Of a stretch of DNA of 64,000 bases, positions 2,518-43,955 are shown piece after piece. Made by a program: the position numbers and the translations under genes. Source of the DNA: Cirrosporium novae-zelandiae (Eukaryota); contig JAPETS010000032.1 of assembly GCA_026023565.1 (NCBI GenBank), forward strand, positions 248,001 through 312,000. Reading direction: 5' to 3'. Below the pieces are notes generated by a model. It did not search any database and was not told the DNA's origin. It saw only the letters and a program-made list of their open reading frames with translations. Numbering within the stretch: position 1 is the stretch's first letter; each line of letters starts with the position of its first letter.

Positions 2518-3694
2518 ATGGTGAAAAGTCAGACTCAGCGGCAGCGTGCCGCTATTGAAAGCAACGATGAACAATTGCCTGAGCTGGATATTCAGGAATT
2601 AACGGCGCAAGGCAAGTTTTGTCTATATGAACATCTGTCCCCCCTAAAAATTAAATACTAACAAGATTGCTTAAGATCCCCAAAGTGAATTAGATTCAGA
2701 TAAGGATGAACTAGATTCCCTCGCCGGCTATGATTCAGATGAAAGGGTAGAAATCGAAACAGAAAGAATGGATATAGCAGCATTGAAGAACTCTCTCTTT
2801 GCACACAACATCTACTTTGACCGGCGTACAGAGTTGCCAAAAGCGCTTGCAGCACTTTTCGCGTCAGTTACGCTATCACGAGAAGGGCCACCGTCGCCAA
2901 AATCCAAAGAGGTTTCTCAAGTTAGCCGTTTTACGTCAAAAATGTCGGAGCTTGATGCAATGATTTATCTTGAGAACTATTTCGGTTTCCCCCCAACTCA
3001 CACGCTTGGTGGTGGCGGCGATGAGAATATTTGTCGAACCCATAGTCAACTATGGACCGCGAGTAGTATCCCAACACCAAATAGCCTAACCGACAACCTA
3101 GCTGCCATACTAGATGCTGTAGGATCCCCGCCGCGGCCTAAACCAGATATCACGTATGGCTACACGCGGTCAACCTTTTCAAATCTTGAATTTACCAAAC
3201 TAGCGTCCCTTCCGTCTTCTACAACTGGGACCAGAGGTGCCGAACCACTATTCCCCTTTTTAATTTTCGAATGGAAGTCAGGACTGGGAATGGCCGAAAC
3301 CGCCGAACTACAGGCGATGCGAGATGGCGCCGCTGCAGTAAACACCCACCGGCATTTTTTTGTCGAGACCGGTATAGCACAGCCGTCGGAGAGCGACACG
3401 GCCATGTTCTGCGTCTACGTCGGCCCCAGAAACATTGATATCTATCTGAGCTGGCGGCGGGAGCATCCCAGGGATGGGATCTCGTGGGAGATGGACAAGG
3501 TGTTTGCGGGACTCCTGGAGCGTCCCGAGGACGTTTTCTTTGCGCGTACCATCCTCCTGAATATTCGGAATTGGGCGTTGCAGCAGCGGCTGAAGCGCAT
3601 CAAGGCCGCGCTGAGGTCATTCAAAAAAAGAAAGGCTGAAGATGATAGTGTTGGGGAGGAACGCCAGGGCCGGCCGAAGCGAAGAAGAGGATGA
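2518..3694 (+). CDS. PD-(D/E)XK restriction-endonuclease-fold protein (DUF7924-like), two exons
   Basis: 308-aa ORF with PKPDITYGY...PFLIFEWKS...AELQAMRDG motifs and a basic C-terminal NLS-like tail. Upstream exon 2518-2611 joins in frame through a GC-AG intron at 2612-2675 with a TACTAAC branch point. Confidence 0.75.
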
Positions 3695-11731: not shown

Positions 11732-13278
11732 TTATTTCGTAATTAAAGCAGAATCATTCAGAAGGTCTAAGAACCATTGTTCATAAACCGTGGTTGCCCA
11801 AGTGTATACTCGGGCGAGAACATTTACAATGGATATAATGTCGACGAACGAAAAGGTACTGAAGACTCTTAGAGGGCCTTGGATGATCTGGGTTTGAATG
11901 AGTTGGCTGTTTCTTCAAGTATTCGACTGTCATTGCTTACCACTTTGTCGGCGGTTGGCTTGCTTGCGATATACAAGCTCCATTTATCCCCTTCCACCGC
12001 CCAGACCGGGATAGATTTCGGTGCCCAGTTGACATCACGGCCTACCAATGTTTCATCTGTATGGCTTAGGTTGTATAGCTTGGCGAAACCTGCAGCGCAC
12101 CAAGTGCCGAGCTGAATCTCTGGATTTTGCCCAGCATGTAGTTTCTTGATTTCCAGATTAGAAAAAATTGGTCGCTTTCGCAACATTTTCTCCGTGGTTT
12201 GGTTGACAGAGGGATGATCGGCATCGGACCTCATAATCGCATCTCCTATCAATTGCAGATGGCTTTGGTCGGACACGTTGAGGCAAAAAGTATAATCAAT
12301 CTTTTTTGCAGGAACCGATATACCATTGTAAATGGGAAGCAGGTAAGATGGATCAACCGAGACCGCTTTCCTAACAGGAACCATATTAGTCTCAATAGCC
12401 ATACTCATCTAACGTCCCAAACCCCCATCACATACATATTAAGTATCGCAACTTTATTTCTCAGTCCTGCATATTCAATTGACTTACGCAGGATGGGGTA
12501 GATGACTTCATCGCTCCAACTGTCTTCGGCCCGCTCTTCATCATGACAGGTACTGGTTGCCTGGCGGATCTCCGTGATGAAGGTCCATAGGTCTGGACAA
12601 GAAGGATTGGGGGAATTTAATTCATCATCAATAAATTCGTATCCTCGTAACTGAATTTTCGGCCGGAAATTTTGTAGATGGACCTGTAAATATATTAGCA
12701 TCTTATATAAAGTTATCCTGAGAATCGCATACTTTAAAGCGCAACGGTAACTGATAAGCGACTACGTCCAACTGATCGTATAATTCGGTCGCATCATCTG
12801 GTAGATCGGTATGGGCCTGGAAGCGTATTTCGGGGTAACTGAGATCATAATCGATTTTCCGTTTGATAGAACTTCGCGATCGACTGGTCGTGGTACTGGT
12901 CGTACTCGATCGTTGCGACAGATGCCTTGTGCTTTTCCGTGGCCGTGGAGTGATGTTAATGTCCCCATTCTCTCCTGTGCCTGTGCTACTCGGCGACGGT
13001 GATGTTGATATAGGATCCAAATCAATTGGCGCTTGAAGTACGGGGGATGGTGAATTGTGATCGCTCAGCATGCGACGCTTGGATGAAGGACCCATTGAGG
13101 ATAAAACTGAAGCACGGCGCTTCTTTGGCGACGTTGGGTGAATCTGAGTTGGTGAATCAGAGCGGGCCAGATGACTGTCAATAAGAGTGTTGGAAAGGTT
13201 GGAACGATGTTGCTCCTGTTCTTGTTCTTGTTCTGGAATGGAAGAAAGCCACTCCTCAACTTTTGAAAAGGGTGGCAT
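11732..13278 (-). CDS. PD-(D/E)XK nuclease-like protein (fungal PDDEXK_12 type), 4 exons
   Basis: Disordered Ser/Pro-rich N-terminus, then CHDEERAEDSWSDEV, KKIDYTFCL, SVNQT...LRKRPIFSNLEIKK, QLGTWCAA and WAVEGDKWSL. The last exon ends WATTVYEQWF...K*. All introns are canonical. Confidence 0.82.
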
Positions 13279-13636: not shown

Positions 13637-14545
13637 ATGACCACAAATTCCCAATTGAAGGAAATTTCTCTTCAAAATGCCATTTCTGAATTCAACCAGG
13701 GGCTTTTCCCCTCGTTCAACGCTTGCGCAAAAGCACACGGAGTCAGTCGCGTGACATTGCAGCGGCGACTGCGAGGGGCTGTTGACCGCCATAAAGCCCA
13801 TGAGGAACAACAGCTTATAAGCGCCATACAAGAAAAGATGATATCTGGATGGATAGTTGAGCTAGATGGATGCGGTCACCCCCTTAGTTATGGAATTTTC
13901 AAGCAGTTGGTTGCGGTTCTAATTGAATTGAACGAGACGTCCCCCAACAAAACAAACACACCAGGAAAACGCTGGATTTCACGTTTCCTACGGCGCAACC
14001 CCGAAGTTAGATCTAAATTCAGCTTTAAGACCGCAACCACCAGGGAATCCATCATGGCCTTCCTAGATTCTCCCGGCTTATATGACCCTCGGAGACACCA
14101 TGAGAAGGCTTCCCCCGCCTCGCCAGACTTTACAATACCTAAAAATAGCGAGGAATTTTGCCAATCAGTCGAAAAATTGGATTCTATCTATGGTGAGGAT
14201 AGAGCTAGATTGGTTAATAAGATCATGGAGTGGTTTGAGATATTGATTGCAAAACAAGCTTTCAATATTGTGAAAGGGGCTTACCAGAAAGCACTATTGA
14301 GTGATATGCAAAGCGAACGACGTACCAAGATCAGGGTAGACCCAAAGGTTCGACCTGCAGACATGATATGGACTGAGGAGGCCAAGGAGAAATCAAATGA
14401 AAACCCCAACGAGAATGCCCTTAGGGAGTTACAAAACCCCCCGAATGCTCAGAATAATAAAGCTGAGGAGGAGGCTAAAAAAACGTCTGAAGGTTTATTA
14501 AGGTCTAATATGGAAAACTGTATGTTCCAATTTCAATTGGAATAG
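13637..14545 (+). mobile_element. Fot1/pogo-family transposase derivative: HTH_psq plus CENP-B HTH fused in frame to the transposase C-tail, DDE domain missing
   Basis: CAKAHGVSRVTLQRRLRG...AHEEQQLIS..QE..WI..L...GHP...GKRWISRFLRRNP is the Fot1/pogo DNA-binding region. It is followed directly by a coiled-coil/RRTKIRVDP tail with no catalytic core. Confidence 0.8.
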
Positions 14546-14912: not shown

Positions 14913-16430
14913 CTATAATATCCTCTTCCTCGTCCATTTCCACGTCGCGTTTCTCGCTTTCAAGTACTCCTTGCTCTCGATAGCCTTGCGGATTCCCCAC
15001 ACCCCACCTATGGGCCAGAAGGAGAGGTACCTGAGCAGCCGTGGTTCGCGGAATGCCTTTTCCTCGCTCTCAGCATCGACCTTCACCTTGTCGTAAACGC
15101 TGGGTAACGACGTAGCATGGTACTTCGCACGGAGATTATCGTACCACCGGCGGTCGAACATTTCCCAGAATTCATTTTCTGAGTAATATGTGTGTGCATA
15201 TAGCCATTTCATACCGCCGAGCTCGCGGAGCTTATGTTCTAGACGGCGGTTTGCAGCTAAGGCAGTAGTGCGGCCTGAGGGGCCAAATCCCCAAAGGCCA
15301 ATGTTTAGCATGCCTTTCTGGGTCTTGCCATCCGCTTCCATCTCGGAGGAGTGGGGGTGCATGGTTGGCAGTGGGCTCTGTTTCAAGGGACAGAGCCAGA
15401 GTGGATAGATTCCAAAGGTGGCGTCGGTGAAATCAACAAACTCCTCGGCGGTGGAGTAGGGCAAGGCTAGATCTTGAACAATATACTGTTTCGAAAATCC
15501 ACTAGCATTTAGAGCTTTATACAGCATCCGTGTATGCAAGAAGTCATCAAGGAACCAACGGGTTAGGTTATTGAATGGGAACATGAAGTACTTGAACGCA
15601 GAGCGACCGACCCAGAACCCGCCACGGTCATAACGGAAAAGATATTCAGCAAGTGGGATTGTTTCTGTAATTGGGCTGGTACTCCTGCTGACTGCGTTTT
15701 GTACGTGCAGGTAGAACCAAGGATCACTAGGACCGCTGAAGGTTTGGACCTTGGAGCAGTCTTCAATAGTGTCTATCGACTGACCTGTAATGATTGCACC
15801 TTTAGATTTGGAAAAAAGAATTCCATCGACATAGTCGATCTCAGGATCCGCCATGACCTCTTTTAATTTTGGTATGGCCTCGGCCATACCACCAGATATA
15901 GGATGGAAGGTCGCTTTAATAAAAGGCTTCGCTTTTTTCAGCTGCAGCTCAACAAGAGTCGTAATACCCAAGCTTCCAACAGCTCCAGCTGCGCCATGAA
16001 AGAGGTCAGCATTTTTATCATTTGAGGCGGTGACTACTTCGCCGTTGGCAAGCACCATTTCAATGGAATTGATAGTGCGGTTAAAAAACCCGTACTTGAA
16101 CGAGCTGCTTTCTCCAGATGTACCCGAATAACCTCCCCCGACAGTTATCCCGGGGAACTCCATGACGACAGGCGGAACTAAACCATGCTTCATGGTCGCT
16201 TCTACCAGACGATCCATAGGAACGTTGGGTTCCACCAAGGCCGTCCGAGCTTGTGTGTCGATTTTCAAGACATTTGATAGTAAGCTTGTGTCAACCATTC
16301 TTGTGCGCTTAAACATGGAGTCACGAGTGCTATTAGTAGAGCCATGAAATATCCGAAACGGCTCCTTGCGGTTATAGAATGTCCGTACATTGGCGGCAAT
16401 GGCGGCGATGACTCTTTTGTGACGCTCCAT
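14913..16430 (-). CDS. FAD-binding oxidoreductase, delta(24)-sterol reductase (DHCR24/DWF1)-like, intronless
   Basis: 505-aa ORF with VEPNVPMDRLV, EFPGITVGGGYSGTSGESSSFKYG, YLFRYDRGGFW, IYPLWLCP and GGMKWLYAHTYY. Confidence 0.9.
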   Translation of the reverse strand: MERHKRVIAAIAANVRTFYNRKEPFRIFHGSTNSTRDSMFKRTRMVDTSLLSNVLKIDTQARTALVEPNVPMDRLVEATMKHGLVPPVVMEFPGITVGGGYSGTSGESSSFKYGFFNRTINSIEMVLANGEVVTASNDKNADLFHGAAGAVGSLGITTLVELQLKKAKPFIKATFHPISGGMAEAIPKLKEVMADPEIDYVDGILFSKSKGAIITGQSIDTIEDCSKVQTFSGPSDPWFYLHVQNAVSRSTSPITETIPLAEYLFRYDRGGFWVGRSAFKYFMFPFNNLTRWFLDDFLHTRMLYKALNASGFSKQYIVQDLALPYSTAEEFVDFTDATFGIYPLWLCPLKQSPLPTMHPHSSEMEADGKTQKGMLNIGLWGFGPSGRTTALAANRRLEHKLRELGGMKWLYAHTYYSENEFWEMFDRRWYDNLRAKYHATSLPSVYDKVKVDAESEEKAFREPRLLRYLSFWPIGGVWGIRKAIESKEYLKARNATWKWTRKRIL

Positions 16431-17489
16431 GGTGGGAATAGGATATGTCTGCTTTGATGTAAGGCCATGGTTCTCTTGCGCCGTCTTTGTTTCAAGAATA
16501 TCATACCACGATAAAAAATAAAGGATGAAGGTAAAACTCAGGAATTGTTAAACAACCTCCCCATCTAAATATATGTAGTTCAAGCAACGAAACGGGTATC
16601 TACATGCATACTATTTGCTAGCATAGCGCAAGATATGTAGTGAAGATCATAAAAACAATAAAATTAGCGACATAACATTCCAGATTAAATTTAGTTTAAT
16701 CTTTCTTTTAACGAGCAATAGCATACTAAATAGAATAGTCGTATTGTATCTGTATATACTAACCGTAAGCGATGATGATGATACTTTCGACGGATAGAAA
16801 TGAAAGCAACTAGCTTCCTCAGATTTTGGAGAGATCTTTAAGTCGATTTTTTATTAAAAGTTGACTTGCCCTTTCACTTGATAGGTGCGATATGATGCTC
16901 ATAGTTAGGTAATTAGGATGTCATGTTCTAGGGTGATTGTTGAGCTTAGAGCCAAGTGATCGTAACAATACTGTAGTATTAATTACAACGAAATTCCCAG
17001 TTAAAATACAGGCACCGAAAACCCTTATGTAGAAATATTATCTTATCTTATCTTATCTTATCTCTAAGGCTAGTTTATCTATTAAGTCTAAAACAAAATT
17101 GGAAATTAGGGTGTAAGACAACTTTGCAACAACAACAACAACAACAATAATATTCAGAATATTTATATGTACTTGGGTACATAGCCCAAGAGTCCTCTAA
17201 AACTATTGTAATTATCTCTCTTGATTACTCCTACTCCTCCTCTTCCTCCTACTACTAACCACCACCACCAAACCCTTTTCTGTTCGCTTCCTCATTCAAA
17301 ATTCAGCACTACTAATACTAATTTAATCTTGAAAACAATAACGTTGATAACAGCAACAGGTTATGCGTAAGTGTGTGTGTTTGATTTTTTCGATGTATTG
17401 ATTTGCTGCTGCTGCTCTATTTTGTTCTTCTGTTCTAGAGCTAGAAAATTGAAGGGTTCGAGCAACTGATGAAGATGGAAAAACCACCA

Positions 17490-18228
17490 CTACCACCAGC
17501 ATGTAATACTATTATAGAATAAGGTTAGTGTGTGTGTGTATGTATTGTGGACCAAATATATAATGTTTTTAGAACCCCCCCCCAAAAAAAAAACATGAAG
17601 GTAAAAAACTTACACGCAGACACAAAATCCCCATATATCGCAAGAAGCTGAGGTTTGAATGTGTTTTCCAGCACAGAGAGTGTTGGCCTTGCTGGTGCAC
17701 TGTTTTTTGTTGGCGAATATGATGGTTATACGTTAGCCCCGTGTACATATATAAATACACATACACACTCTCTTTCTCTTAACGAAACAAAAGAAAAGAT
17801 TGGATCGACAAACGTACCCAGCTAGTGCAGGAAAAGCGTCTCTGAAGTCTACGTTTCGTGTCATCGTTGGAACACATGCCGGTTTCTTGGGATTTGATCG
17901 TTGTTGTTGTGGTGGTGGTTACGCTGCTGGTCTCCGTTGTAGGGCTTGCGGCTGAGCTGGCTACTAATGTAGTTATTGTTGTTGTTGCTGTTGGGCCTGC
18001 GCTCAGCGCAGTTGAACTGGCTGTCAACGTAGTAACCATGGTGGTAGTAGTCGTCGTCGTCGGGGTGACCGTGTTAGAACTAGCAGTTGAGCTGCTGGTT
18101 GCACTAACGGTCAACGTGGTAGGGGTCGTATTAGTGCTAACAGCAGTCACTGCCGTAGCAGAAGGCTTAGTAGCGGCCATGCATGACGCAAAGAATATGA
18201 ACAAAGATAAAGTAATTGAAGTCTTCAT
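17490..18228 (-). CDS. Secreted protein: signal peptide, Thr/Ser mucin-like stalk and C-terminal 8-Cys defensin-like domain (3 exons)
   Basis: Exons 18228-17818, 17699-17614 and 17508-17490, with GTACGT and GTAAGT donors, CTAAC branch points and YAG acceptors. The C-terminus reads GMCSNDDTKRRLQRRFSCTSWCTSKANTLCAGKHIQTSASCDIWGFCVCVITCWW*. Confidence 0.78.
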
Positions 18229-18769
18229 TTTGGAAAGAAGCTTGCACTTTGATATGTAATTTTCTCTTGGTTGCTTATGACTCCCGAATCGTTCTTGTTT
18301 TAGGATCCTGTTTGTAGTGGTGCTGAAGTGCTTTGTGAACTTCTTCAACGAAAAAAAAAACAACCGACGATACTATTTTTTTTATAATCTGATCAGATCG
18401 TGCTGGTATAAGACATATATAATGAATGTTATGGAAATATGTATACAGCAGCCAGCTCAGACATTTTGTGAAACCTAAATTTGGAAATATTTATCTGGTA
18501 TGGAACCCCCCTTACTCGATTTTGTTCGTTTGTTATGCTATATAGTTTTAATTTGCTTTTTCATGACCGATTTTAGATCAAATATGGCCTTTTGGCGTCA
18601 CCTAGGTCTGATGAAGGCACTTTTTTGTTACAAAAGTGTTCTGGTAAAGGAAAACCTCGGCTAGATCTAGAGTCAAACCAAAGGAAAGAGAGAGAGAGGA
18701 ACAGGATCAGGTGAGTTTAGGATATTTAGAACATTGCTAGCATAGGGGCTTATAGAGAGACATTCAAGG

Positions 18770-19288
18770 GAGACGCAAAAAAAGAGCGCTCCCGATTTGA
18801 AAGTCGGACAAGCACGGTATGACAAGGATTCCTGAGCACTGGCACTTCCCGGTAAGCCCCCCAGTTCTCCGTCGCCGCCGTTGAGTTACCAAACCCACTT
18901 ACACCCTATCTTAACCGAAATCAGAAAACCCAGGATTATATAACGAAGCCCCAAAAATTAAAATTTTGAAAAAAAAAAGAAAAAACATACTGTAGCAGAG
19001 CATCTAATACCAAATTCCCTCATGGCGTCTTCGATTAGCAACAGCTCCATCGGTTGCTTCGGGTGCAACGCAGAAACCGGGCCCTGAAGATGGGATTGGG
19101 AATTCCGTCGAGTATCCATCGGTTGGGGTTATAGTTAATGTGGGAGCTAAGGCCTCCTTCGTGGTCACCGGACTCGGGGTTTCTGTATCAGCAGTCGGCT
19201 GGACATCGGATTTGGCGGTTGCTTTAGTGATAACTAGAACCGGCGTCGAGGAGACGAAGAGGAAGAATAAAAGACTTGGAATTTTCAT
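18770..19288 (-). pseudogene. Second secreted Thr/Pro-stalk gene, likely a decayed paralogue of the neighbour (or a short 94-aa secreted protein)
   Basis: Signal peptide MKIPSLLFFLFVSS, T/P-rich stalk, GFC...NRRR, then TAG followed by MLCY and a GTATGT donor. A downstream frame encodes TGKCQCS. Confidence 0.5.
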
Positions 19289-19660
19289 CTTTTTAAGAAA
19301 GGTTGATGAATATTTATTAGTAGTTGGGTAAGTTAGGCGGTAATTGTTTAAAGCCCTTCTTTCTCCAATGGTTTTTATAATGCCGAGAGACTTTATTTTT
19401 TATATCTGGTCAATGCCTCCTACTACAAAGATAGAGTGATATGGAATTAGTAGTTTACACATCCATCACACGGATAATGCGAGGCATCACGTAAACACTA
19501 TAGGCCAATTTGTGTAGTATTTGCTTTCTATTGTACATGTCAATATAGATAGATAATGTTATGGCTTGTTGATATACAGACTACTTACTATCTAGCGTCT
19601 CTCAGGATAGTCTTGTCTATGTTCTTGAGTGGCATATAAAACGCACCACGAATTTCCGTG

Positions 19661-21661
19661 TTACCCTTCCCCTAGCTCAAGTTGTGATATTAATGCTGCA
19701 GCTTTTTGATCGGATCGATTTGCTTTTTTCAAAAAAATGTGGCTTGCCAAGTCTGAAAGTTCCTTTTCCTTCCAAAGGGGTGATAAAGAATCAATATAAT
19801 TATTGGTCTTGCCGCACATGGGCTTAAGAAATCGCGATCTGTTTTTAACTAGTATACTTGGATTCCTGGGCATCTGCTGCCAAACTTCCACGGAAGTGGT
19901 GTTCTACTAAAGCGAAGAGAAGTGTAAGTCAATTTTTCATCGGAGCATTCCCAACTGTTACTGACCTTAGCCATCTCGTATGGTACTTTTGAGACATGTC
20001 CTCCATCGCCTCAATCCTTTGCCGTTTCCGGGGATATACCTCCTTTCGAATGGAACCGTAGAACACTTGCTATTGTGGAAGATTGTTGTCATATCCTCTA
20101 CAAAAAGCTGCTATGCGCCTTAGGCCATTTTCTAGGTATGAACGGGTCACTTCGGACCTATAGTCTATCTTTTGACCCTAACGGTCTGCAGTGGCATCAG
20201 TTAAGCGAATCACCAATGGTTGGCCAATTGAAGGACCGTCTTTCAAGGATGTACCGCTAAATTCGGAGTCTAGAGTCATTCTTGGTTACACGTTTACCAA
20301 CAACCTCGAGTCAACCTGGATCCCTTTCTGGTGGAATGCCTTTCAGTTCTAGTCAATATTCCGCGGATTCTGCATTACTGAGGCAGTAAACCATTGCTAT
20401 CCTCGAACCGAGATCCATGCTCTACAGAAGACATTGCTGGTTGAGTCTAGCCGGGAAAGTTACAATATACAGGCTGCATAACCCATAAGCAAATCCGTAT
20501 ACAATCAACCCGTTCAGCTTCTGTAAAGTTCCTTACGGCAGCATTGAAACAGGGTTGTCTTTCATAGGAACATTGCGACTTTAAGGTTTTCATACTCTCG
20601 ACCCACTCCCGTGAGGTCAAATAAGGGTCAAGGCGCTTCGTTTCCCAATCGTCGGGTAATTGCTTAGAGACTCCGCAGATCTTGTCTGAGTCTCTGGATG
20701 TCTAGGTTCCACTCATGCAGGGACATTTCTTTAAGCTGCATACGTGAGAGTAGATACCTTGCTTGAGCTCTCTGGTTACTCCCCGAGATGCTACTGTCGT
20801 GCTTAGGTTTAGCCTAGAAATCCCTTACACGGCTGCCACAGCTCCTTGGTCTCCGATGAGAGAGTTGAGTCTGGGTTTTTCCAAGTGCAGAAACTAAGTC
20901 TTTACCAGACCGGCGTCTCATCAAGAGTTTCAAAAACCAGGAGGTCTGCCTTGACCGGTCTAAGGAACCTTGCGTCACCGCAATTGAACGGAACAATGTG
21001 AAGCAACCGAGGGAAAGTACCTGGTAGCATTTCAACGAGCGGGGTGAGAACCTCAACAGACGCTGTTTTCTGGTGGCACCTGTGTCATATCTCGTTGCGC
21101 TGTTTCGACATGGGAACTGAGTTCCTGGCACTGATGAAAGTTGGAAGTGATTAGACCCCTTTCAAAATCGCTTTCCACAGAGGAATCCGTGCGAATATTG
21201 GCATGATAGACATTCTAGCGATGCTGGCTGACCCGTTTTTCTTTTGCAGGCGAGGCCTAGAACCAGAGCTGTGATAGATCGTCCAAACCACAGAGCAATC
21301 CTTGATAATATGGCTGATTTATAATTGAGACTTCTTCTTGATCGATGTATGTGATGTCAACTCAGACGAAGCCCGATGAAGATACGATTGATTTAAGGAT
21401 TTCTAAGAACTCCTTAACTGTAAATCGGTCTTCGTTAATGATAGGAATTTTCTAGGAAATTCCTTTCACTGGCAGTCGAGGACCGGAGGGGATTTCACAA
21501 CGGCCCCAGGTGTAGGATAGAGCATTGTAGGGCGGTTCGAAAACGCCTACATATGTGTTCGGGGCCTCTCTCTAGTATGATAACATCGTGGGGACATGGA
21601 GAAGCCTCCAGGGCCATTGGCGTGGTTGAGCTTTGGGGATACCATTCGGCTGAGGATCCAT
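19661..21661 (-). pseudogene. HET-domain (heterokaryon incompatibility) pseudogene
   Basis: Minus-strand translation from 21661 reads WPWRLLHVPTMLSY*REAPNTYVGVFEPPYNALSYTWGR...VKGIS*KIPII...FV*VDITYIDQ. These are HET motifs interrupted by stop codons, and the downstream frames are fragmented. The 3' end is approximate. Confidence 0.82.
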
Positions 21662-23776
21662 CGTTTTGATGCGATGTTATAAATGATCAGTCAATAATGA
21701 GCCTTTTTGAAGAATGTTTGAATTAAAACCAAACTAGGTATGCATCTCCTAGGTGACTTGACAGTAAGAAGAGAGCGAACTGCGTAGAACCTACAGAGAG
21801 TAGCAACGGTTGAGTTGTTATATCAATGGGCTGGATAGATATTTCTACGCCAATATCGCCCGTGGGAGTGTACCTAGACAGCAGGCAGGTACGGGAGCCA
21901 TTGCGTATGTATTTAGACCGACCGTGGGCCTCATAGGCTCTTTGGCTTTAGGGAAATTCATACCCTAAATCATTGCTCCCTGGGTCTCCTAGCCCCTTAT
22001 ATCGCCAATTTTATGATTTGAATCCACCTCGTTCTTTTAGGAAATGAAGCCAAAGCCATCAACACTTTTTATCGTCTCTTATAGTAGGTATAGATGTCGT
22101 TGAGTCACAATCAAGCGGAGATCTTAGCACCATAATTATAAGTCCGTATTCTTAACCATGACAGTTGTCCGACATCATAGGTTCACGCATTTGATTGATC
22201 TTTCTTCGAGTGACATCGAGGGTATAGACAGTAAACAGCGCAAGGCAATGTGATGGAAACCGATTCATATAGATGAGATATGGTAATGGCGGAGGCAAGA
22301 CTTCGGATTGGCAGGCCCTAAAGGAGACAGGCTAGCAAAACAAATACACGCTGTGTTGATCCCATGAGCAGGGGAGGGATTCGAAAGACCATTGACTAGT
22401 AAGAGCCATTCAGCAGCTGGATCCAAAGGATGAAGATGAATATAACCAAAGGGATTTGCAGATGCAAGGACACAAAGAGAAAGCAGATGTACACATGTTC
22501 CCTTTCTTATGGAACCTTCTCTCGTTAAGCGCTTCGAACATCCGCTGTGCCGGGACATTCCTAGGGAAACAATCTTCCTTGCTGTCAAGCCACGACCTCA
22601 CCACCAAAAATCGCGCAAAAAACAGGGGTTCTCCAGATTCTCGAGACCCAGATGCTTAATGCTGTCCTGCATTAGCTTGACAAGTCTCTCTAAAGCTAAA
22701 ATCAACATCCTCTGTCACAAATGTAATTAAATCGCGCAATAAATGGCCCCCAGTAGTAAAAGTTGGGGAAGCCCATCTGAATTCGCTTATCAAAAGAACG
22801 CTTTGAGGCTAATTACCTACTTCTTGGCAACCGACGGCGAGTTCTATTTCAACCTTCAAAATATAGACAACAATCAAAAATCAGGCTAGATGAACAAGAA
22901 AAGGCCTAAATAAGGCAGAAGAAAAGGAAATCAAAGCTGGAACAACATTGAAAAGAAAAAAAACATATATTTGAAGCTCGTTTTTGCTGTGGGAGATCCC
23001 TTGCGTGTTAAAGGATGGTCAAGGCAACATAATGATCGGAGCCCGTAAACAAATCATCAGGATCGATAATGAGCAGTAAATATCAAAAACAGACAGACAT
23101 TGGATGCTATGTGACTATAAGGAGTTAGGTATGTTAATGTTTGTTGAAGTTATGTGTTCATGAACTTGTTTTCAAATGAGTTGCTTCAATGGTTGGGATT
23201 GATTGCCTAGGTAGCTATGTGATGTTGAGGAAATAAAGCCGAGGCCGACCTGGTACACTTAGAAGAATATCTTCTATCCTATCCTTGACCTAAGCTATTG
23301 GGAATAACGAACCTCTCCGTATTCGCAAATGTCGGTGATTATCTAAATGACTAGATTTCTAGGTGGGATTTGAGTTCTAGGCTTGTTTACTGCCTAAAGT
23401 AGCAAAGGCTTACACAATGCGAAATGACGAAGGCATGGCATCATCCAAATCGTTCAGGCAAGATAAGGGTCAAAACAGGCCAAGATTAAGGCGCTGCTCT
23501 GTAGTCATATTGAAATCTAACCATCTAAATCTAAAGATATTTTTAATCCATCAACACGGCCGCCAGTGGGTACCAAGTAAATCGCTAAACCAATCCCCAT
23601 CCACCCACCAGCAAAAGGTCAATGAATGGCAAACTCCGAAGCACCTCCACCTCAAAACACCATATTACCTGGAAACGTATCGTGCTTGCGCTCTATGCTG
23701 TTCTTATCCTTGGTTTTTACGAAGATCCTGCTTCTATACCTTGATGATTGGGGGGGAAGTTGGGGGCTAAGGAAAC

Positions 23777-24717
23777 TTAGTCTCGCTTCGTACCTGGCAT
23801 TGGGAAAACTGGCACCCTGATAGGGGTATTAAATGCCCAAAGGTTGTGGGCTCCGAGAATGACTAAGTACTGTTAGAGTCTGTCTGGAATGGACCGTATT
23901 TCAAGGGAACCCACAAGTCAAGAATGCACAAACATATCCCAAAGCACTGCCTGCTTTGCTGCATGCTGTGTTGTCGTTCATATTTCCGATAGCGAGGAGC
24001 ATGAAAACGAGATCAAGGACTACGAGGTCGATAAATAGAACCCAATTGGTCTTAATGGCGCCGACTACAAAGATAAAGGTGACGATAAACCAGGCCCAGA
24101 GGAATAGCGCTACAGCCGGGGCGAATTGGTCGTTGAGTTCTCCGGTCTTCGAATCGGTATAGGCGTCCATAATTCCGGAACCGGGAACATAAATAATACC
24201 ATACGCTAGGTTGAAAGCGCCATAAGCCGGGAAGACCGTTCCTTCGTACTGAGAATATAATATTAGCTATCGGTTTGTTAGTGGGCGAATAGGGAACATA
24301 CCGTATTACCAGCAATCCAGCAGAAGATTCCACCCACAAACTGAGCGATACCACTGAAAAAGACCAACATGCCAACGAGAATGTTAGGGGTTGCAACGCC
24401 CCGGACGGCAAGACCACAGCTAGATATCAAGAATATACCTGTGATTCGCAAATCAGCCACTATCCAACTGTCACGAAATCATGCTGATTCATACCGGCCG
24501 AGAATCCCAACAGGGCGAGCGGGGAGCCATCAGCGTAGGTCCGTTGCGGTAACTCGTGGATGAGGTGTTCGTGGCCATGCTCATGAAGTGTACGGTCTGA
24601 ATGGCTATCCCTCTTCATATGCCCCCCCTCCTTCATCTGTTCCAGGCTCTCCTCAAGATTTGAGGGTTGAGCATTGGACTCAAGCTTGTTAGCTTGATCA
24701 AAAGATTCCGAAGACAT
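23777..24717 (-). CDS. GPR1/FUN34/YaaH family acetate/monocarboxylate transporter (Ady2/AcpA/AlcS-like), 4 exons
   Basis: YADGSPLALLGFS, VATPNILVGMLVFFSGIAQFVGG, GNTYEGTVFPAYGAFNL and FAPAVALFLWAWFI. The last exon ends PGTKRD*. Confidence 0.9.
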
Positions 24718-26949
24718 GGTTGGTAACGTGGTCAAGAGTTTAGTTGATCAAACAAAGCAGGAATTATCTCCTCGGAGTAAAGTAGAATATGTTGATAATG
24801 ACTAACGTACTTCGGAGAAAACAATAAAGGATGAAAGAGGAAGACCGAAAAGACTGCTATCACGGAGAAAACCACGGCTTTGAAGGAATGTAGAACTTTG
24901 TAGGAAACAAAAAATTTGGAAAGAAGAACGGGTGACGATGATAAATCCCAACCCAAGACAGGAGAAAACTTTTCCAAGACCCAGTAAATCTTCACTAGAA
25001 TATTAACCGGCGGTATTCTGCAAAGTGGTTCACCAGATTGTCGAAAACGGGCGGTGCCTCCAAGCGGCTCCGATTGCTTAGAGTTGTCAAATCGAGGAAT
25101 GATCTCCAATCAGAGACAAAGTGCAGCAAAGAAGCAACAGTTCGCTAGGCAAGTATCTTCGGGAAGAGCCTTGGCTTAAAGAGCATAATTCACGCTTGAA
25201 CGCTCTAGAGCTAGGAACGGTTTGAGCTGACAGGCAGTGACAGGGAGCCCAACCAGTTTTCTGATATTATGGAGCAGGGGAAGGTGGACCAGAAATGTGA
25301 ATAGTAGTGAGACGGTAGCAACGTGGCGGTCGCCGAGCCTCGAACAAGACTTTGGGCACATACTGGCTGCTAGGACCTCCATCCATAAAGGGAAATATAT
25401 GCATACAAAGTAGACAATAATCCGAAAAGGTTCTTCGAGGTTCTCAGATACCAAGCGCCAGGCTTGGGCCTTGTATGGAAGCTGGTACAAGTAAGTAGCG
25501 ATAACTACCAAAAGCATAAAATCATAGGGGAACAGCGAGTGTAATCCCGTTGGTTAAACTACAGAGGATGCCAAAGTAAGAGGGATCATTAGTGGTCAGG
25601 AGATGAGTGAGCCTCCATGGCCGTTCCTGGGAATGTTTCAAATCTCGGAATCGGACTAGTTAGTAGATTTTGTTCTGCGCCTCACCTGATTTCGCATCAA
25701 CAAAGGCCGGACCATTATTTGGGAGCCGAGTCCCCTTGGGGGGCAGATAAATTTAAAAAGCGGAGGCGGTGCGCTCGTTTATCTGTGGAAATTTGGAAAA
25801 ATGGAAAATTAGAAATTCGCGGCCTCCCCATCAATTTGGAATTTCGAGACTCCCACGCAGAAAATCTTCCTGAGAACGGCTGTTTGCAGGAAGGAAGTCC
25901 CCGTATCACATTTCGCGTGGCACCGACAGCAATAAATGTTGGATTATTATTATATGTTGTATTTGGTTGTGAACTTCATCGACCAACTACCTAGATACCC
26001 AAGGCCTTAAAGATTAGTATTACGCAAATAATTCCAACCTTGCAGGCAGGATGTGTCTTGGTAGATTCTAGAGCAGTTAAGAACTGGAGACGTGCAGAAG
26101 GTTTAACAGATGAAAATTTGCCAAGCAGCATACCAATGCGTCGACAAGTAATTTCTGCCAAAACCCGCCGGTGCCGCGATAATAATTAATTATTGGGGGG
26201 GGGGGGGGCGAGACGCTGGCCAGTGGGCACTGACAGCTTGCTCTGACTTCGATTCATCCTAATGCCATCGTAGAGCAAGGACAGTTCGTCTATTAAACTT
26301 GAACGGTAAAATGATGATCTGCACATCCTTTGTCTTTGCTCACTGCATTGTCCCAAGCCATTTCCTCATAGCTGTTCAACGGCTTCAGCCATCTCTGCAC
26401 ATTTCCATCATCAATTCATCATGGTTCATTGTGGTATCCCTGAATTGAACCACCTCCTGTGGTAACTTCTATGTGTGTGCTTTATAATTTGATCCAATCA
26501 TTGCGATGGGGGGAGAAGGTGGACTGACGGCTAGGATTTGGCGTGGAACGGTGCAATGGTGAGCAGGAAGGAGAGGACCGAAGTGAAGCCGATCCGATGG
26601 TGAAGAGACGGTCGAGTGTTTAAATTTAGAGGAGAGGGATATTAAGCTCATGCTGGTCCAATGTTGAAGTTTGTTGAAGTAAGGGTTACTCGGAAGCCGG
26701 CAAGGGCTTGATCAATAGTAAACCCTAATCAGGCTACAAGGCATCAAAATATACTTAAGGTAGAAATCTATAAATATATTTGCCTCAGGTGTCTACTTAC
26801 ATCCTTGTTGCTCGTTAACCAATACTCCCAGCATCTCGCACATCGTAGGTCGCATCAGTAATTTTTCCTTTTCATCCTTCAAATTCGCATGCCAATGACA
26901 TATATTATATATACTTCAAACATCCGGAAGGATCAGAAAGATGGCATTC

Positions 26950-27410
26950 CTCCCGCACCCTGAAGCCTAAGGCTGGTCCCAAACCATTATTATACACATT
27001 TCCAATGGTCAGGTCTAACCCACTCTGATTTCTAATTTTCAACACAAAACCCTTCGAAAGTTAGAAAGCCAGCCTCGGCCCTTAGAAGTCGCTTCGGAAC
27101 GATACCGCATCATAGACTATCGTCGACAATGCCAATCTTCATCCCCCGCATTTGCTTCCCCGCACCCGGGCAGGGAATTCACGTATCATCAATTAGGTGG
27201 TGGGAATCCCAAGATCCAACTAGATCTAGATGGGAAACATACGGTCAATTAAGGTCTATTCCATGAGATAAGAGATGGAGCTTATTCTTGGGATTCTGTG
27301 CGACGATATCCCGTTTTCTAGCACGGGATCCGAGGACGGGTATTGGGAGCCTTCAGAAGCAGAATAATGATGTCGTATACCTGAATAGTAGGACAGCAAT
27401 AATATAAAAA
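26950..27410 (+). promoter_or_regulatory. ADH promoter with CCGCA/CCCCGC motifs (AlcR-like core, CreA SYGGRG) and TATA
   Basis: CCCCGCA direct repeat at 27144-27150 and 27158-27164. Further CCGCA near 26953 and 27105. TATAAAA at 27403. Confidence 0.45.
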
Positions 27411-40156: not shown

Positions 40157-43100
40157 CTACCGTCCAAACTCCAACCCGGGCACAACAACCGGTCCAAACT
40201 TGACAACCCCCATTCCCATCCCACTAGCAAAACCCGCACCCTGATCGCCCTGAACGACAAAGTCCGCAGCCAAACTCAGCTTCCCCCCACCACGACTCAT
40301 ATCCGTTCTTCCAAACGTGCTCGTTACAACCTCAGGATCGTACGCGCACATGGCGACGTAGTTTCTGCGGCCCATGATCTTAGGGCTGGCTCCGGAGCCA
40401 CCGCCGCCGCCGGGGTGGCTTGAAGAGGATGGAGGGAGACCACCGAGGAGTTCGTTAGCGCCTTTGAAGATTTCGAGCATATCTTCTTTAGTGTCGGAGG
40501 GGACGCCGGGTTGGGAGCGGTGGGCATTTAGGGGAACGTATAGGCCGCCTTTGTTTGAATTTTGGGTTAGGAGTTTGAGAACGTACGAGGGTGGGGGCGT
40601 GTTCACGACCGCCGACGCGATTAGTTGATACATTGTTTTGTGGTCTTGCGGGTGGGATGGGTCGTGGAGAAGGCCAGTAGCGCAAGCATTTACGGCACCG
40701 CTGAGGAACGTTATCCTTAATGCTTTTTGGTGTGCTATACCCTGGAGTGTGCGGATTAAGTAAGTGCGTTCCAGGTCCTTCGATTCGTGGGTCCATTGGT
40801 CGCGCAACTCATCCAGCACATCAATATCGCCAAAGGGAGAAAGGATATTATTCATAAGACCGGATTTTCCTACTGCGCGCTTAATGCTGTCGAAAGATGA
40901 ATTTACGGCTGACTTGGCACCCACAACCCCGGCGACAGAAGAAGTGACACGACCCAGAATGTTGTAGGCGCCTGTGACAGCCTTCTTGCCAGTGGTAATC
41001 GTGTGAGCTATGCTTTCCGCAGCTTCAAGACGTGGATACACTATCGGTACAGGGGACAAGATGAGACAGTGCTGTACGCTGGGAGGCAAGAGCGCAATCT
41101 TTGGAAAAAGACCTTGATATGTTGGTCCGGCCATTACCTGGTGAGGATTTCGTTCTGAGCGGGTATCAGGCCCCACAAGGACAACAGCAGGGCCGAGGTA
41201 TTTCACAAAGTGCCAACCGGTGCCCGTGACGGTGAAGAGATCGGTGTCGTTAGAGACGTTGCGGAGGATTTCGAGCGTCGTGTGATGTTGGAAGAGAAGA
41301 TACATTTCTATGCCGATACGGCCAATGTTTTTGAACATGTTGGAGAATTGCATGTAATCAGGGTACGAGCCAAAGCCGTCGAAGCTAATAAAATTAGTTT
41401 CAAAGATGGAAAGTAGGGCCGGTCAAGACTTACATATCATGATCGTCAACCGTGAGAATGTGAGGGATCTGGGCAAATGCTTCACGGAGGTAAGGCTGAT
41501 CAAAGTGACTGGTGTAGTAGTGGAAGTAGGCGTGGGTGACATCGTCTTCGTGTTGAGCCGTCCAAGGAGTATTCTTTCGAATATCTTTCCCACTTGTCGA
41601 GAGCCATTGTTTGAGGAGAGGTATTTCTCTCCATAATCTGTCCGCATAAATCTGCCCGCCAAGTCCAAGCTGTGCATGAAAACCTCCGCATTCAACATGC
41701 TTCTGCATAATATCTTTCCACATATATCCTACACCACCCAGCTTCGCTCGCTCATTCGCGTTGACATTAATAGAAAAGTCGTTTCCAGAAGTAGCAATCC
41801 ATCTCCAGCCAGTTTCATTACGGCCGGCAACAAGGAATTCATAACGTGTACAACCTAGATGGGAGGTGATGGCATAAGTCCATTTCGTACTTGGTTGATC
41901 TTCCATCTGAAGATCAACCTCATACTTATAAAATGTCCATCGCTGGTGGACATGAATAGCAATAGCCTTTAGCTGTCTCGGGTTTGGAGAAAGATCAGCA
42001 CTTTGATGGATGTGGATCGTTGGAGGCTGAGGAGCATCCGTCACCAACAGAATGGATCCTAACCAGAGGCCCCGTTCAAGGTCCATATTAGTATAACGCA
42101 GATAGGGACCGAAATAAACTCCATTTGTTGGTGCAACTTTATAAACTTCAACGCCGTTGCTGGGCGGAGGAGCTGCAATTCCTGAGAATCCCGCCATGGT
42201 TGGTGTTCCGGGATTCATACTAAAGACGCTTTCTGCATACCCAGGAGTTGGGGGAGCAAACCCTGGAGAAGCCATCGGTTTTGCCGCAAAGGCACTACTA
42301 AGGCCTGGAGAGGCCAGAGGGTGCCCTCCATACGCACTTTGGGTTGGGGAGATAGGGGCTTCATTCAAGTTCAAAGGTGTAGGTCCTTTTGGAAACTCCC
42401 ACTGGGTCGATTGCGTAGGTAGATGAATATAATAATACTGCCCCGAGTTCGGATCCAGGTGTGCGATCCATCCTTCAGGCAGAGGGGGAGGTGACGCAGG
42501 GACTTGACTCGGGGGTGCGGGTGAAGTATTGCTATGCTGGGATGCTCCTTCGGGATGACTTTGCTGATTTTGTTGTGTGGAGGGTGATGACTGTTGTCCA
42601 GGATCATTCGCAAAGGCTGGATGGCCCTGTTGGCGAGCAACAAGTGATCCAGAAGGAGCAACACCTGCAGCATTGTTGCTATTTTGTCGTTTCTCGTCAG
42701 GATAACCTTGCGCCGTCGTCGGACCTTGACCAGAAGGTCGACTGACGCTGGAGTAAGCAGGTGGGGGTGATGAGGACATGTTCATCCGCTGAAAGTCGTG
42801 CTCTAATGCAGTCTCTCCAGGCCGCGGGGAGGCGCTGTTGGTCTGGGGGATGATTTGCCGACCAGGAGTCGGAGATTGTATTGGAGGGGACGTAGCTACC
42901 TGGTTTGGTCCTTGATAGACAGTTGGTGGACCATGTGGTTGGGACCCCGGCTGTTCAGTTGGTGTCCATGGCCTTCGCGCCGGCTCTTGAGCTTGGGGCC
43001 GAGGCTGCTGCTGCTGCTGCTGCTGTCCAGCGTACTGATGTGCCCGCTGTGTCGCTGCGGCATTGTGGGCCTGTAAGCTATTTAGCGTGGAGGTGCCAGC

Positions 43101-43955
43101 GATTCCAGCCGCGGCATATCGAGCTTCAATTCCTCCTCCATGCTGATCATCAGGTCCAGCAACAGGGGTCTCTGGCGGAGGTGGCGATCCTCGTTGAGCC
43201 TTCGTTGTTGAGACCGAGGCCACCGAGTCCATTCTATTGACGGAATTTGGATCCGCCATATTAAGTCTTTGAGCCGGTGGCGACTTCAAGGGTTTGGGAC
43301 CCGATTGAGAGGGCCAATATTGCTGATGATATTCTGGATAGGGATTAATCTCCGCTTGCGAGGGCCGTCGTGGATCGGGCGAGGCAGGGTTGCGTTGAGG
43401 TATCCTCTGAGATAGCCCTTCTTTATCTGGTGTTTCTGGACCAGGAGAATCGGGCAAGGGCTTCACGGCAGCTCCTCTTCTCTCGGCCAATTTTGATGTG
43501 TGCTGTTGTCCATCACGGCCACCTCTAATTTGAAGAGGAGCAGGATATGTCGAGGGGTCAGTAGCAGAGGCAGGACTTGATTTTGGCGGAGGAGAATAAG
43601 AATGTTGGACCCGCGGAGAGGTTGCTCCCCTTTGGTCAGGGGAAGCAATGCGACCTGACTGTGGATATGGCAAACCATTTGTCGCAGATTGCTGCTGCTG
43701 CTGCTGCTGCTGCACTCTTGAGCGATCATCTGGGTAAGGAAGTGGAGTGGCAGAGCTGGTGGCTCCCGGGGGAAGTGGGAAGGCGGAAGGCTGCGCGGCG
43801 CCGTACGGTTGGCTTCCTGCAGACGCCGTCCTTGTTTCAGAAGAGGCAGAATCTCTCTTGGATATTTTCAAAGGTTCGATGGTAGGAGAGTCGACGGGTC
43901 CGGGTTTCTGCAGAAACATCTCCGTATCCGGAATTCCACGCTCAGTTGCACTCAT
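40157..43955 (-). CDS. Pro/Gln-rich WW-domain plus PhoD-like phosphatase-fold protein, 2 exons
   Basis: WW domain LPEGWIAHLDPNSGQYYYIHLPTQSTQWEFP. PhoD-like motifs QIYAD, DDHD-IFDGFGSYP, LFQHH and VPIVYPRL. Confidence 0.9.

Follow-up and report, generated by a model that had tools for sequence, protein, structure and literature searches.

A gene with three exons, apparently unannotated and belonging to a filamentous ascomycete (Pezizomycotina), was found on the minus strand of the 64-kb window, that is, the whole stretch of DNA that was analysed. Its predicted product of 171 aa would be a secreted protein made up of a signal peptide, an O-mannosylated Thr/Ser-rich segment of ∼92 residues and a 53-residue C-terminal domain with eight Cys. 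This domain may be defensin-like, as a divergent member of the CS-alpha-beta (cis-defensin) superfamily, a reading to which we give a little less than an even chance.

The preliminary description had placed two canonical introns in this region and deduced a C-terminal splice product from them. Translation of the minus strand by coordinates reproduced that gene model and resulted in a product of 171 aa when both predicted introns were removed. The features are as follows.

18175..18228, minus strand: start codon and predicted signal peptide, residues 1-18 (from the sequence; cleavage site judged by eye with the -3/-1 rule)
17893..18174, minus strand: Thr/Ser-rich stalk or pro-region, residues ∼19-112 (from composition and codon log-likelihood)
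18228-17818, minus strand: exon 1, 411 nt or 137 codons, with the ATG at 18228 and closing on a codon boundary
17818..17892, minus strand: end of exon 1, with C119 and C134 and, separating them, a basic loop of 14 residues (from the sequence)
17836..17856, minus strand: multibasic sites KRR (125-127) and RR (130-131), which may be Kex2 sites or no more than a cationic loop
17817-17700, minus strand: predicted intron 1 of 118 nt, in phase 0, separating W137 from C138 and thereby the two Cys of CxxxC
17699-17614, minus strand: exon 2, 86 nt, with five Cys (138, 146, 157, 163, 165), among them those of CxC and the second one of CxxxC
17613-17509, minus strand: predicted intron 2 of 105 nt, in phase 2, interrupting the V166 codon
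17508-17490, minus strand: exon 3 and TAG stop, the last five and a third codons, with C169 and the terminal WW

Intron 1 has a GTACGT donor and a GCTAAC branch point ∼33 nt upstream of a CAG acceptor; in intron 2, a GTAAGT donor is combined with a CACTAAC branch point 15 nt upstream of a TAG acceptor. Over the full 64-kb minus strand, a strict intron pattern (a strong donor, a CTRAC branch point and YAG, spanning 45-130 nt) had six matches at four separate sites. The two proposed introns account for four of these matches, and three have the common acceptor 17700. In 30 second-order Markov simulations, the same pattern occurred on average 3.0 times per strand. GC content amounted to 0.50 in exon 1, 0.36 in intron 1, 0.48 in exon 2, 0.31 in intron 2 and 0.35-0.37 in the flanks; it thus steps at each of the four boundaries between exons and introns. 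The codon usage in exon 2 did not discriminate, ranking at the 49th percentile among random windows. When intron 1 is left unspliced, an in-frame stop follows 12 codons past the donor, giving rise to a 149-aa Thr-rich protein. Retention of intron 2, the first bases of which make a TAA stop right after CVCV, results in 166 aa with seven domain Cys. The domain Cys add up to an even number (eight) only after removal of both introns. Intron signals, GC steps and Cys density are each above what chance would give, and from the sequence we infer that both introns are removed.

Residues 1-18 contain a hydrophobic core, with values of 1.5-2.6 on the Kyte-Doolittle scale for the N-terminal nine-residue windows 3-12, and carry small residues at -3/-1 before Ala19; the protein is probably secreted. 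Residues 21-112 comprise 39 T, 16 S and 12 A out of 92, corresponding to 60% Thr/Ser. The codon log-likelihood of this segment was +13.0 in its own frame versus -36 and -27 in the other two. No real tandem repeat was detected in its DNA, only one weak 26-nt row of period 3. The segment is presumably heavily O-mannosylated.

The last 53 residues read C-x14-C-x3-C-x7-C-x10-C-x5-C-x-C-x3-C. Translation recovered the gaps of this spacing (14, 3, 7, 10, 5, 1, 3) just as they had been described earlier. The domain Cys are found at 119, 134, 138, 146, 157, 163, 165 and 169, and one further Cys (16) is part of the signal peptide. Their order is C, CxxxC, C, C, CxC, C, with a first loop of 14 residues. 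The domain is net basic, with 7 K+R versus 3 D+E in 53 residues. For eight Cys in 53 residues, the binomial P equals 2e-4. At least five Cys were present in 165 of 39,041 stop-free 29-codon windows over six frames, spread over 28 loci, and such stretches are therefore not rare genome-wide; the chance of at least five Cys in the one frame dictated by splicing is about 0.002-0.004. When eight Cys were placed at random in 53 residues 200,000 times, the minimal order arose in 7.6% of cases and the exact order plus loop in 0.48%, the mapping to the eight-Cys array having been made after the sequence was seen.

The cysteine-stabilised helix motif is present, as C134-x3-C138 is followed by C163-x-C165. 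Positions of a third Cys pair are also filled, by C119, 14 residues before C134, and by C157, between C138 and C163. A gamma-core GxC is absent at the strand-2 Cys, C157 being preceded by A-S, and the sole GxC is found at C163. The segment from CxxxC to the strand-2 Cys has 18 residues, which seems long for a helix-to-strand connection. In solved relatives this segment has ∼9-11 residues, and in the eight-Cys peptides of molluscs and nematodes and in maurotoxin it is likewise shorter. Structure was modelled by exon with AlphaFold2. No secondary structure emerged for the exon-1 tail when modelled by itself (mean pLDDT 64.4); the exon-2 fragment, carrying 11 intron-derived residues, was helical at 138-147 and formed a strand at 162-165, at a weak mean pLDDT of 69.9. 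At low confidence, these fragment models agree with an order of coil, helix and strand. A helix at CxxxC was not predicted by the Chou-Fasman method, which was uninformative on this point.

The likeness to defensins is closer than the preliminary description supposed, though with other comparators; plant defensins and drosomycin fit poorly. These do share with the present domain eight Cys, a terminal CxCxxxC and a small, basic, secreted nature. Their CxxxC, however, consists of the third and fourth of eight Cys and they have an extra bond C1-C10 (PMC5116183); here CxxxC is formed by the second and third Cys, and the layout therefore does not correspond to theirs. That source also sets out a ten-Cys reference array for CS-alpha-beta sequences, in which the motif is CxxxC with a later CxC. 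Mollusc defensins, nematode ABFs and maurotoxin occupy eight of its positions (C2-C6, C8, C9, C10), with bonds C2-C6, C3-C8, C4-C9 and C5-C10. The n-loop is given there as 4-16 residues, tending to be longer in nematode peptides, and GxC (or CxG) as only a tendency, also shifted in mytilin B. The order of the eight Cys in mollusc peptides (MGD-type defensins, myticins, mytilins), nematode ABFs and maurotoxin is identical to that of the domain described here, and the n-loop of 14 residues is long, as nematode peptides tend to have. Unlike the present product, however, these are animal peptides with no mucin-like N-terminal region, and no sequence similarity between them and the domain was found. 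Most fungal families have a six-Cys insect-type spacing or fungus-specific patterns, according to PMC5116183.

A fungal likeness was found in gene structure. Intron 1, being in phase 0, splits CxxxC, so that exon 1 carries the first two domain Cys. In micasin-type genes (fDEF2/fDEF8, Pezizomycotina; PMC4165938), the first intron is a phase-0 intron that interrupts the alpha-helical region and separates the first from the second Cys of CxxxC, and the second intron is in phase 2, both as here; where exons 2 and 3 were lost, the last four of six Cys are gone. The signal peptide, CxxxC plus CxC and the total of three exons are common to both. By the same source, micasin-type peptides differ in having six Cys in ∼38-42 residues instead of eight in 53, and in a propeptide that is short and acidic or absent, where the present product has a neutral 92-residue Thr-rich segment. 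Their basic residues stand just before the mature peptide, whereas here the basic sites follow the first domain Cys, and their intron 2 lies in the c-loop, between Cys 4 and Cys 5, whereas here it interrupts codon 166, after CxC. Other fungal defensin genes have entirely different exon layouts (PMC5234102). The phase-0 intron inside CxxxC, shared with micasin-type genes and independent of Cys order, is by analogy a hint of defensin likeness.

Similarity of the exon fragments to micasin-type peptides was not detectable in Pfam, protein representatives or PDB sequences. Using phmmer, the 40-aa exon-2 frame was compared with 1,835,955,588 representatives and no homologue was obtained; the sole match with E ≤ 0.001 (P0001), a 1709-aa bacterial repeat protein aligned over 19 residues with no Cys, was judged spurious. 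Among proteins of 75-240 aa, none was found by a word-indexed search with residues 96-137 of exon 1, and a scan of metagenome contigs with exon 1 gave 589 pattern matches, of which 0 were confirmed. The exon-wise fragments (137 and 40 aa, with low power) matched no Pfam family at E ≤ 1 and no PDB sequence at E ≤ 10, and gave no usable match in the ESM Atlas. With tblastn, the spliced protein retrieved from the 64-kb window only itself and low-complexity noise, and no paralogue. No product of the locus was found in the protein collection, where the product of the neighbouring gene is present with 100% identity. Hydrophobins have eight Cys including two adjacent CC pairs; the domain contains 0 CC pairs and this family was rejected. 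CFEM, CBM1, hevein/CBM18, EGF-like, nsLTP 8CM and inhibitor cystine knot were excluded on Cys spacing alone, by comparison with the general patterns of these folds. Titles and abstract openings were searched for a Thr-rich or mucin-linked fungal defensin and none was found. Cylindracin/PRI3 of Cyclocybe (PMC11532979) likewise begins with a signal peptide and a pro-like segment and ends in a basic domain with eight Cys; it is antifungal and secreted into the surface polysaccharide layer. It differs in being a basidiomycete protein with a short acidic 16-residue pro segment and a Gly-rich domain.

Three other explanations were weighed. The product could be a GPI-anchored, O-glycosylated, mucin-like protein of the wall or plasma membrane, the C-terminus of which would be a GPI signal removed in the ER, leaving the Thr-rich stalk and a four-Cys knot (119, 134, 138, 146) on the cell surface; we consider this unlikely. 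A signal peptide, a Ser/Thr-rich body and a hydrophobic C-terminus are the standard layout of fungal GPI proteins, and the spliced product matches it, its C-terminal windows 157-163 reaching 1.6-2.7 on the Kyte-Doolittle scale. The earlier reading had left the GPI fit of this hydrophobic spliced C-terminus unconsidered. The fungal GPI consensus, given in PMC5555451 as [NSGDAC]-[GASVIETKDLF]-[GASV]-X(4,19)-[FILMVAGPSTCYWNQ](10) at the end, fits the spliced product at omega candidates 140, 146 and 154, and neither the unspliced nor the intron-2-retained C-terminus; it is permissive by design, however, and serves as a screen, not as proof. Omega at 154 would leave an even number of Cys (four). 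Two multibasic sites close together also occur in Ywp1, a GPI wall protein of Candida albicans, in which both sites are cut Kex2-dependently and the propeptide stays associated (PMC6258133). Ywp1 has in common with the present product the signal peptide, the O-glycosylated Ser/Thr-rich body and the two multibasic sites few residues apart, but its propeptide is N-terminal, N-glycosylated and held non-covalently. Against a GPI signal, the uncharged terminal run has only 13 residues, with three Cys and three Trp, and the eight Cys are clustered in the last 53 residues, unlike in fungal GPI wall proteins. Short tails with several Cys and Trp are atypical for GPI signals. Anchoring would also make coincidences of the Cys density, at its binomial P of 2e-4, of the exact CS-alpha-beta order and of the defensin-like intron position.

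It is equally improbable that the domain is a small, secreted Cys-rich protein of some other, possibly new disulfide fold, such as a lineage-specific effector or matrix protein, in which the likeness of CxxxC and CxC would be fortuitous. The lack of sequence or profile similarity to any family in searches of the exon fragments speaks for it, as do loop lengths unusual for CS-alpha-beta, the 7.6% of random eight-Cys layouts with the minimal order, the location of the gene in a lower-GC stretch (0.39-0.41) adjoining a gene-poor region, and a neighbouring gene for another small signal-peptide protein. Fungal defensin relatives with altered motif spacing did change fold (PMC5234102). The exact eight-Cys order plus loop, with its chance of 0.48%, argues against another fold, and so does the phase-0 intron inside CxxxC, which is independent of Cys order. 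Still less probable is a wrong gene model, or a locus not expressed as proposed, the real product being the 149-aa unspliced or the 166-aa intron-2-retained form and the Cys-rich reading partly an accident of TG-rich DNA. The CVCV stretch does sit in TG-rich sequence, the window has Cys-rich frames free of stops at 28 loci and exon 2 codon usage does not discriminate. The introns of 118 and 105 nt are about twice as long as the clear introns of neighbouring genes (49-80 nt, partly by inspection), and the locus, unlike the neighbouring gene, has no product in the protein collection. However, two strict intron-pattern matches fall exactly at the needed positions, GC steps at all four boundaries, the frame is open and Cys-rich only as dictated by splicing, and the Cys count is even only with both introns out.

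If the domain is indeed defensin-like, C134-C163 and C138-C165 bonds would pin the CxxxC helix to the CxC strand, and a C119-C157 bond would join the n-loop to strand 2. C146-C169 would be the fourth bond, possible only with intron 2 spliced. This putative pairing follows the array of the mollusc/nematode type. The domain would likely act as an antimicrobial, or serve some other function directed at surfaces or partners, within the secreted matrix. As for the Thr-rich segment, it would be a glycosylated pro-region or spacer, in the place that a short acidic propeptide takes in the fungal defensins known so far.

The positions of KRR (125-127) and RR (130-131) between the first two domain Cys were confirmed by translation, and the 40-residue, seven-Cys piece ending in WW that had been predicted from them is arithmetically right for a cut after R131. 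The candidate cleavage contexts are DTKR|RLQR, TKRR|LQRR and LQRR|FSCT. In known defensin precursors, basic sites stand in front of the fold; here they are located inside the putative n-loop. Yeast killer toxins K1 and K28 are cut by Kex2 inside a folded secretory precursor, resulting in two disulfide-linked chains. By analogy, the likeness would lie in the proposed Kex2 cut in a folded precursor leaving disulfide-held chains; the sequences and folds of K1 and K28 are unrelated to the domain here. In a study of Kex2 substrates, acidic residues were preferred at P1', P2' and P4' (PMC2515848). None of the three contexts has an acidic residue at these positions (P1' = R, L or F), and Kex2 cleavage is a conjecture because the dibasic sites are without the preferred acidic P' residues. 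A Kex2 cut with a disulfide-tethered two-chain product would be purely inferential. Very unlikely, in our estimate, is the full combination, in which this would be the first fungal defensin of the mollusc/nematode eight-Cys layout, a mucin-defensin chimera with the O-mannosylated stalk still attached, the n-loop nicked by Kex2 and the stalk held only by C119-C157, making it a latent or matrix-retained two-chain antimicrobial. As the nearest sequenced relatives of the fungus include lichen-associated lineages, such a protein could police bacteria or partners in the extracellular matrix.

The candidate is a single orphan gene and its present value is that of a lead. Short 3' exons coding for the whole functional domain of small secreted proteins escape ORF-based annotation. 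If the defensin reading is true, fungal defensin-like peptides would gain a layout with eight Cys that has to date been reported from molluscs, nematodes and scorpion toxins, and the gene would be one more case of intron position and phase keeping homology after sequence similarity is gone. Compared with the cited literature on fungal defensins, it would also represent a new precursor type, with a long glycosylated Thr-rich segment instead of a short acidic propeptide.

The predicted three-exon gene was assembled on the minus strand (18228-17490) from the following features.

18228, minus strand: ATG in an A-rich context, opening a 137-codon frame (18228-17818)
17817-17700, minus strand: predicted intron 1, 118 nt, with GTACGT donor, GCTAAC branch point and CAG acceptor
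17613-17509, minus strand: predicted intron 2, 105 nt, with GTAAGT donor and CACTAAC 15 nt before TAG

Codon log-likelihood strongly preferred the 137-codon frame (+13.0 versus -36 and -27 in the other two frames). The N-terminus was hydrophobic and signal-peptide-like (Kyte-Doolittle windows 3-12, 1.5-2.6), and the 92 residues of the stalk preceding the Cys-rich domain included 39 Thr and 16 Ser (55 in total). The GTACGT donor fell exactly on the codon boundary at the end of the frame; read-through without splicing met a stop 12 codons on. Removal of both introns resulted in a 171-aa product with eight Cys in its last 53 residues (the domain), separated by gaps of 14, 3, 7, 10, 5, 1 and 3 residues. 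The two-intron splice and eight-Cys C-terminus of the preliminary description were reproduced exactly from the sequence, its KRR and RR sites were present, and its peptide of ~40 aa with 7 Cys corresponded to the 40 residues after R131. The domain Cys count was even in the fully spliced form only (8). When intron 2 was retained, the frame ended directly after CVCV, leaving 7 domain Cys. Within 17488-17613 (minus strand), the 105 nt of intron 2 are divisible by three and read on into exon 3 without a frame shift; the joint reading frame is interrupted solely by the TAA at the start of the intron. The unspliced form ends right after CxC, as six-Cys defensins do; the eighth Cys added by splicing recalls the C-terminal extension of hymenopteran defensins, ascribed to intron/exon change in PMC4165938.

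The whole window was scanned with a strict intron pattern (GT[AG][ACT]GT, CT[AG]AC, then [CT]AG 5-32 nt on; total ~45-130 nt), yielding five matches on the plus and six on the minus strand. The latter represented four sites; four of the six belonged to the two proposed introns, and three had a common acceptor at 17700. Simulated strands (30 second-order Markov runs) gave 3.0 ± 1.9 matches. Since two matches are positioned just as the open frame requires, an accidental origin of the two is unlikely. GC content was 0.50, 0.36, 0.48 and 0.31 in exon 1, intron 1, exon 2 and intron 2 (flanks 0.35-0.37), with a step at every proposed exon-intron boundary; the surrounding stretch has a GC of 0.39-0.41. 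Cys-rich open frames are not rare in themselves: at least five Cys were found in 165 of 39,041 stop-free 29-codon windows (six frames), at 28 loci, several of them simple repeats. The chance of such richness in the one splice-fixed frame was about 0.2-0.4%, and eight Cys in 53 residues had a binomial P of 2e-4.

For codon statistics, exon 2 has too few codons and too many of them for Cys, and the codons for CVCV sit within TG-rich DNA. Introns 1 and 2 are about twice as long as clear introns in neighbouring genes: 49 nt in the phosphatase gene, which served as reference for the intron style of the organism, and 49-80 nt in others judged by eye. The spliced form is nevertheless very likely the correct gene model. 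The surroundings were annotated as follows.

40157-43955, minus strand: PhoD_2 phosphatase gene with N-terminal WW domain and a 49-nt GTAAGT...TTAG intron (41433-41385)
2768-3694 (plus), 11869-12408 (minus) and 13637-14545 (plus): mobile-element-like frames, 4-15 kb from the gene
Window, neighbouring Pfam domains: PhoD_2, ECM29, DUF7924, PDDEXK_12, amino-acid permease, peptidases M19 and M20

Neighbouring genes had the short introns and Pfam domains usual in filamentous ascomycetes. The mobile-element-like frames matched DUF7924, PD-(D/E)XK nuclease (PDDEXK_12) and, weakly, a Tc5-transposase HTH, and may be mobile element remnants. Beside the gene, ~8 kb (19500-27400) held few long open frames at a GC of 0.42-0.47; one frame (23901-24266, minus strand) resembles a membrane protein fragment. 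The adjacent upstream gene (19004-19288, minus strand; open frame of 95 aa from ATG) encodes a signal-peptide-like N-terminus, then a Thr/Pro-rich segment, then one Cys, and an RRR site that precedes the stop by seven residues. Its only Pfam match was sub-threshold (DUF7096, E = 0.033). Because the downstream sequence (18650-19000) offers GTATGT and GTAAGT donors as well as a pyrimidine-rich acceptor region, it may also have hidden 3′ exons.

The preliminary description compared the domain with plant defensins and drosomycin while noting a misfit. CxxxC is formed by the third and fourth of eight Cys in those peptides and by the second and third here; CxC is formed by the sixth and seventh. A closer layout is the mollusc/nematode eight-Cys type. 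In the reference numbering C1-C10 (PMC5116183), C3, C4, C8 and C9 make up the helix-stabilising CxxxC/CxC motif and C2 and C6 complete the fold. Mollusc and nematode eight-Cys peptides occupy C2-C6, C8, C9 and C10, with bonds C2-C6, C3-C8, C4-C9 and C5-C10; maurotoxin and some other scorpion potassium-channel toxins have the same layout. The domain maps one to one on this array (119=C2, 134=C3, 138=C4, 146=C5, 157=C6, 163=C8, 165=C9, 169=C10). Its n-loop (C2 to C3) has 14 residues; the range in that paper is 4-16, longer ones tending to be nematode. When eight Cys were placed randomly in 53 positions (n = 200,000), the minimal order arose in 7.6%, and 0.48% combined the exact order with 4-16 n-loop residues, figures that somewhat overstate the evidence because the mapping was made post hoc, with the sequence already seen.

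Intron positions were compared with those of micasin-type defensin genes of Pezizomycotina (all fDEF8, three fDEF2), which according to Wu, Gao and Zhu (PMC4165938) have two introns, the first in phase 0 within the alpha-helical region and the second in phase 2 within the c-loop. In a pseudogene of this type, loss of exons 2 and 3 has removed the four C-terminal Cys of six, which places the first intron between both Cys of CxxxC. Intron 1 likewise lies inside C134-x3-C138, in phase 0 between W137 and C138. Intron 2 shares phase 2 with the micasin type but follows CxC (codon 166) instead of falling in the c-loop. Conserved intron position and phase have been taken by the same group as a homology relic among divergent fungal defensin relatives, some with altered CxxxC or CxC spacing, and the Zytrisin genes have a different layout (PMC5234102). 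The agreement of one intron in two is a suggestive, not decisive, hint of kinship independent of Cys order.

Relatives and families were searched exon-wise with unspliced fragments; power was low because queries were limited to such fragments. Residues 96-137 of exon 1, in a word-indexed search of proteins of 75-240 aa, matched nothing, not even the product of this locus. In a metagenome scan, exon 1 matched 589 pattern stretches, of which 0 were confirmed. The fragments gave 0 Pfam families at E <= 1, 0 PDB sequences at E <= 10 and no usable ESM Atlas match, and the window held no paralogue. The exon-2 frame gave a single phmmer match among 1,835,955,588 representatives (P0001, E = 3.2e-5). 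This 1709-aa bacterial repeat protein was rejected, with 19 aligned residues and no Cys among them; it scored only because its many near-identical ~90-residue repeats include 15 residues similar to the exon-2 segment that separates C138 from C157, and shows that repeats inflate the scores of short queries. A search of the protein collection recovered the product of the adjoining single-exon FAD-binding gene (14913-16430) with 100% identity. Among the best 120 of 8000 scored candidates, its next relatives were 62-70% identical; those named were Pezizomycotina, including lichen-associated MAGs (Sclerophora, Circinaria, Chaenotheca, Psora, Xylographa) and Leotiomycetes (Lachnellula). By these low identities the lineage is poorly sampled, so that absent relatives of a fast-evolving small secreted protein would mean little.

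AlphaFold2 without alignment modelled the exon-2 frame (40 aa, the first 11 residues derived from intron 1) at a mean pLDDT of 69.9, with residues 138-147 helical and 162-165 in a strand. The first strand of this model consisted of intron-derived residues and was discarded as meaningless. For the C-terminal 41 residues encoded by exon 1, the model (pLDDT 64.4) showed no secondary structure. These fragment models agree weakly with a loop, then a helix, then a strand; Chou-Fasman prediction gave strand for 158-171 and was uninformative for helix.

The candidate Kex2 sites have R, L or F at P1′ and no acidic residue after. After Kex2 cleavage in the would-be n-loop, stalk and peptide would stay joined via the predicted C119-C157 bond. 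Yeast killer toxins consist of two chains linked by disulfides. In Ywp1, twin multibasic sites are both cut Kex2-dependently and the propeptide stays associated (PMC6258133). Such a tether would be structurally coherent, with precedents in principle. In a study of fungal Kex2 substrates, acidic residues were preferred at P1′, P2′ and P4′ and structural constraints were found (PMC2515848). The propeptide of known defensin precursors finishes with the basic site, ahead of the first Cys (PMC4165938), as with RQKR in an insect example (PMC11116330), whereas the sites of the present protein fall after the first domain Cys and before the second, where the n-loop would be, and could simply form a cationic loop.

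Signal peptide, Ser/Thr-rich body and hydrophobic C-terminus are hallmarks of fungal GPI-anchored wall proteins, a rival on which the preliminary description was silent. The fungal GPI consensus, as given in PMC5555451, finds three omega candidates in the spliced product (140, 146 and 154) and fits neither alternative C-terminus; omega at 154 would leave four Cys. The terminal uncharged run, however, is just 13 residues and holds three Cys and three Trp, and a mucin-like wall protein would turn Cys order and intron position into coincidences. We consider it unlikely, and another Cys fold equally so. A wrong or unexpressed gene model is less likely still, the model being probably right.

The eight-Cys observation is confirmed in the sequence. 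Among the titles and abstract openings surveyed, none described a fungal defensin that is Thr-rich or joined to a mucin. For now this is one orphan gene; its best reading, tentatively held, is a divergent defensin-like domain of the cysteine-stabilised alpha-beta fold, with the eight-Cys layout of molluscs and nematodes, borne by a Thr-rich segment that would be glycosylated.
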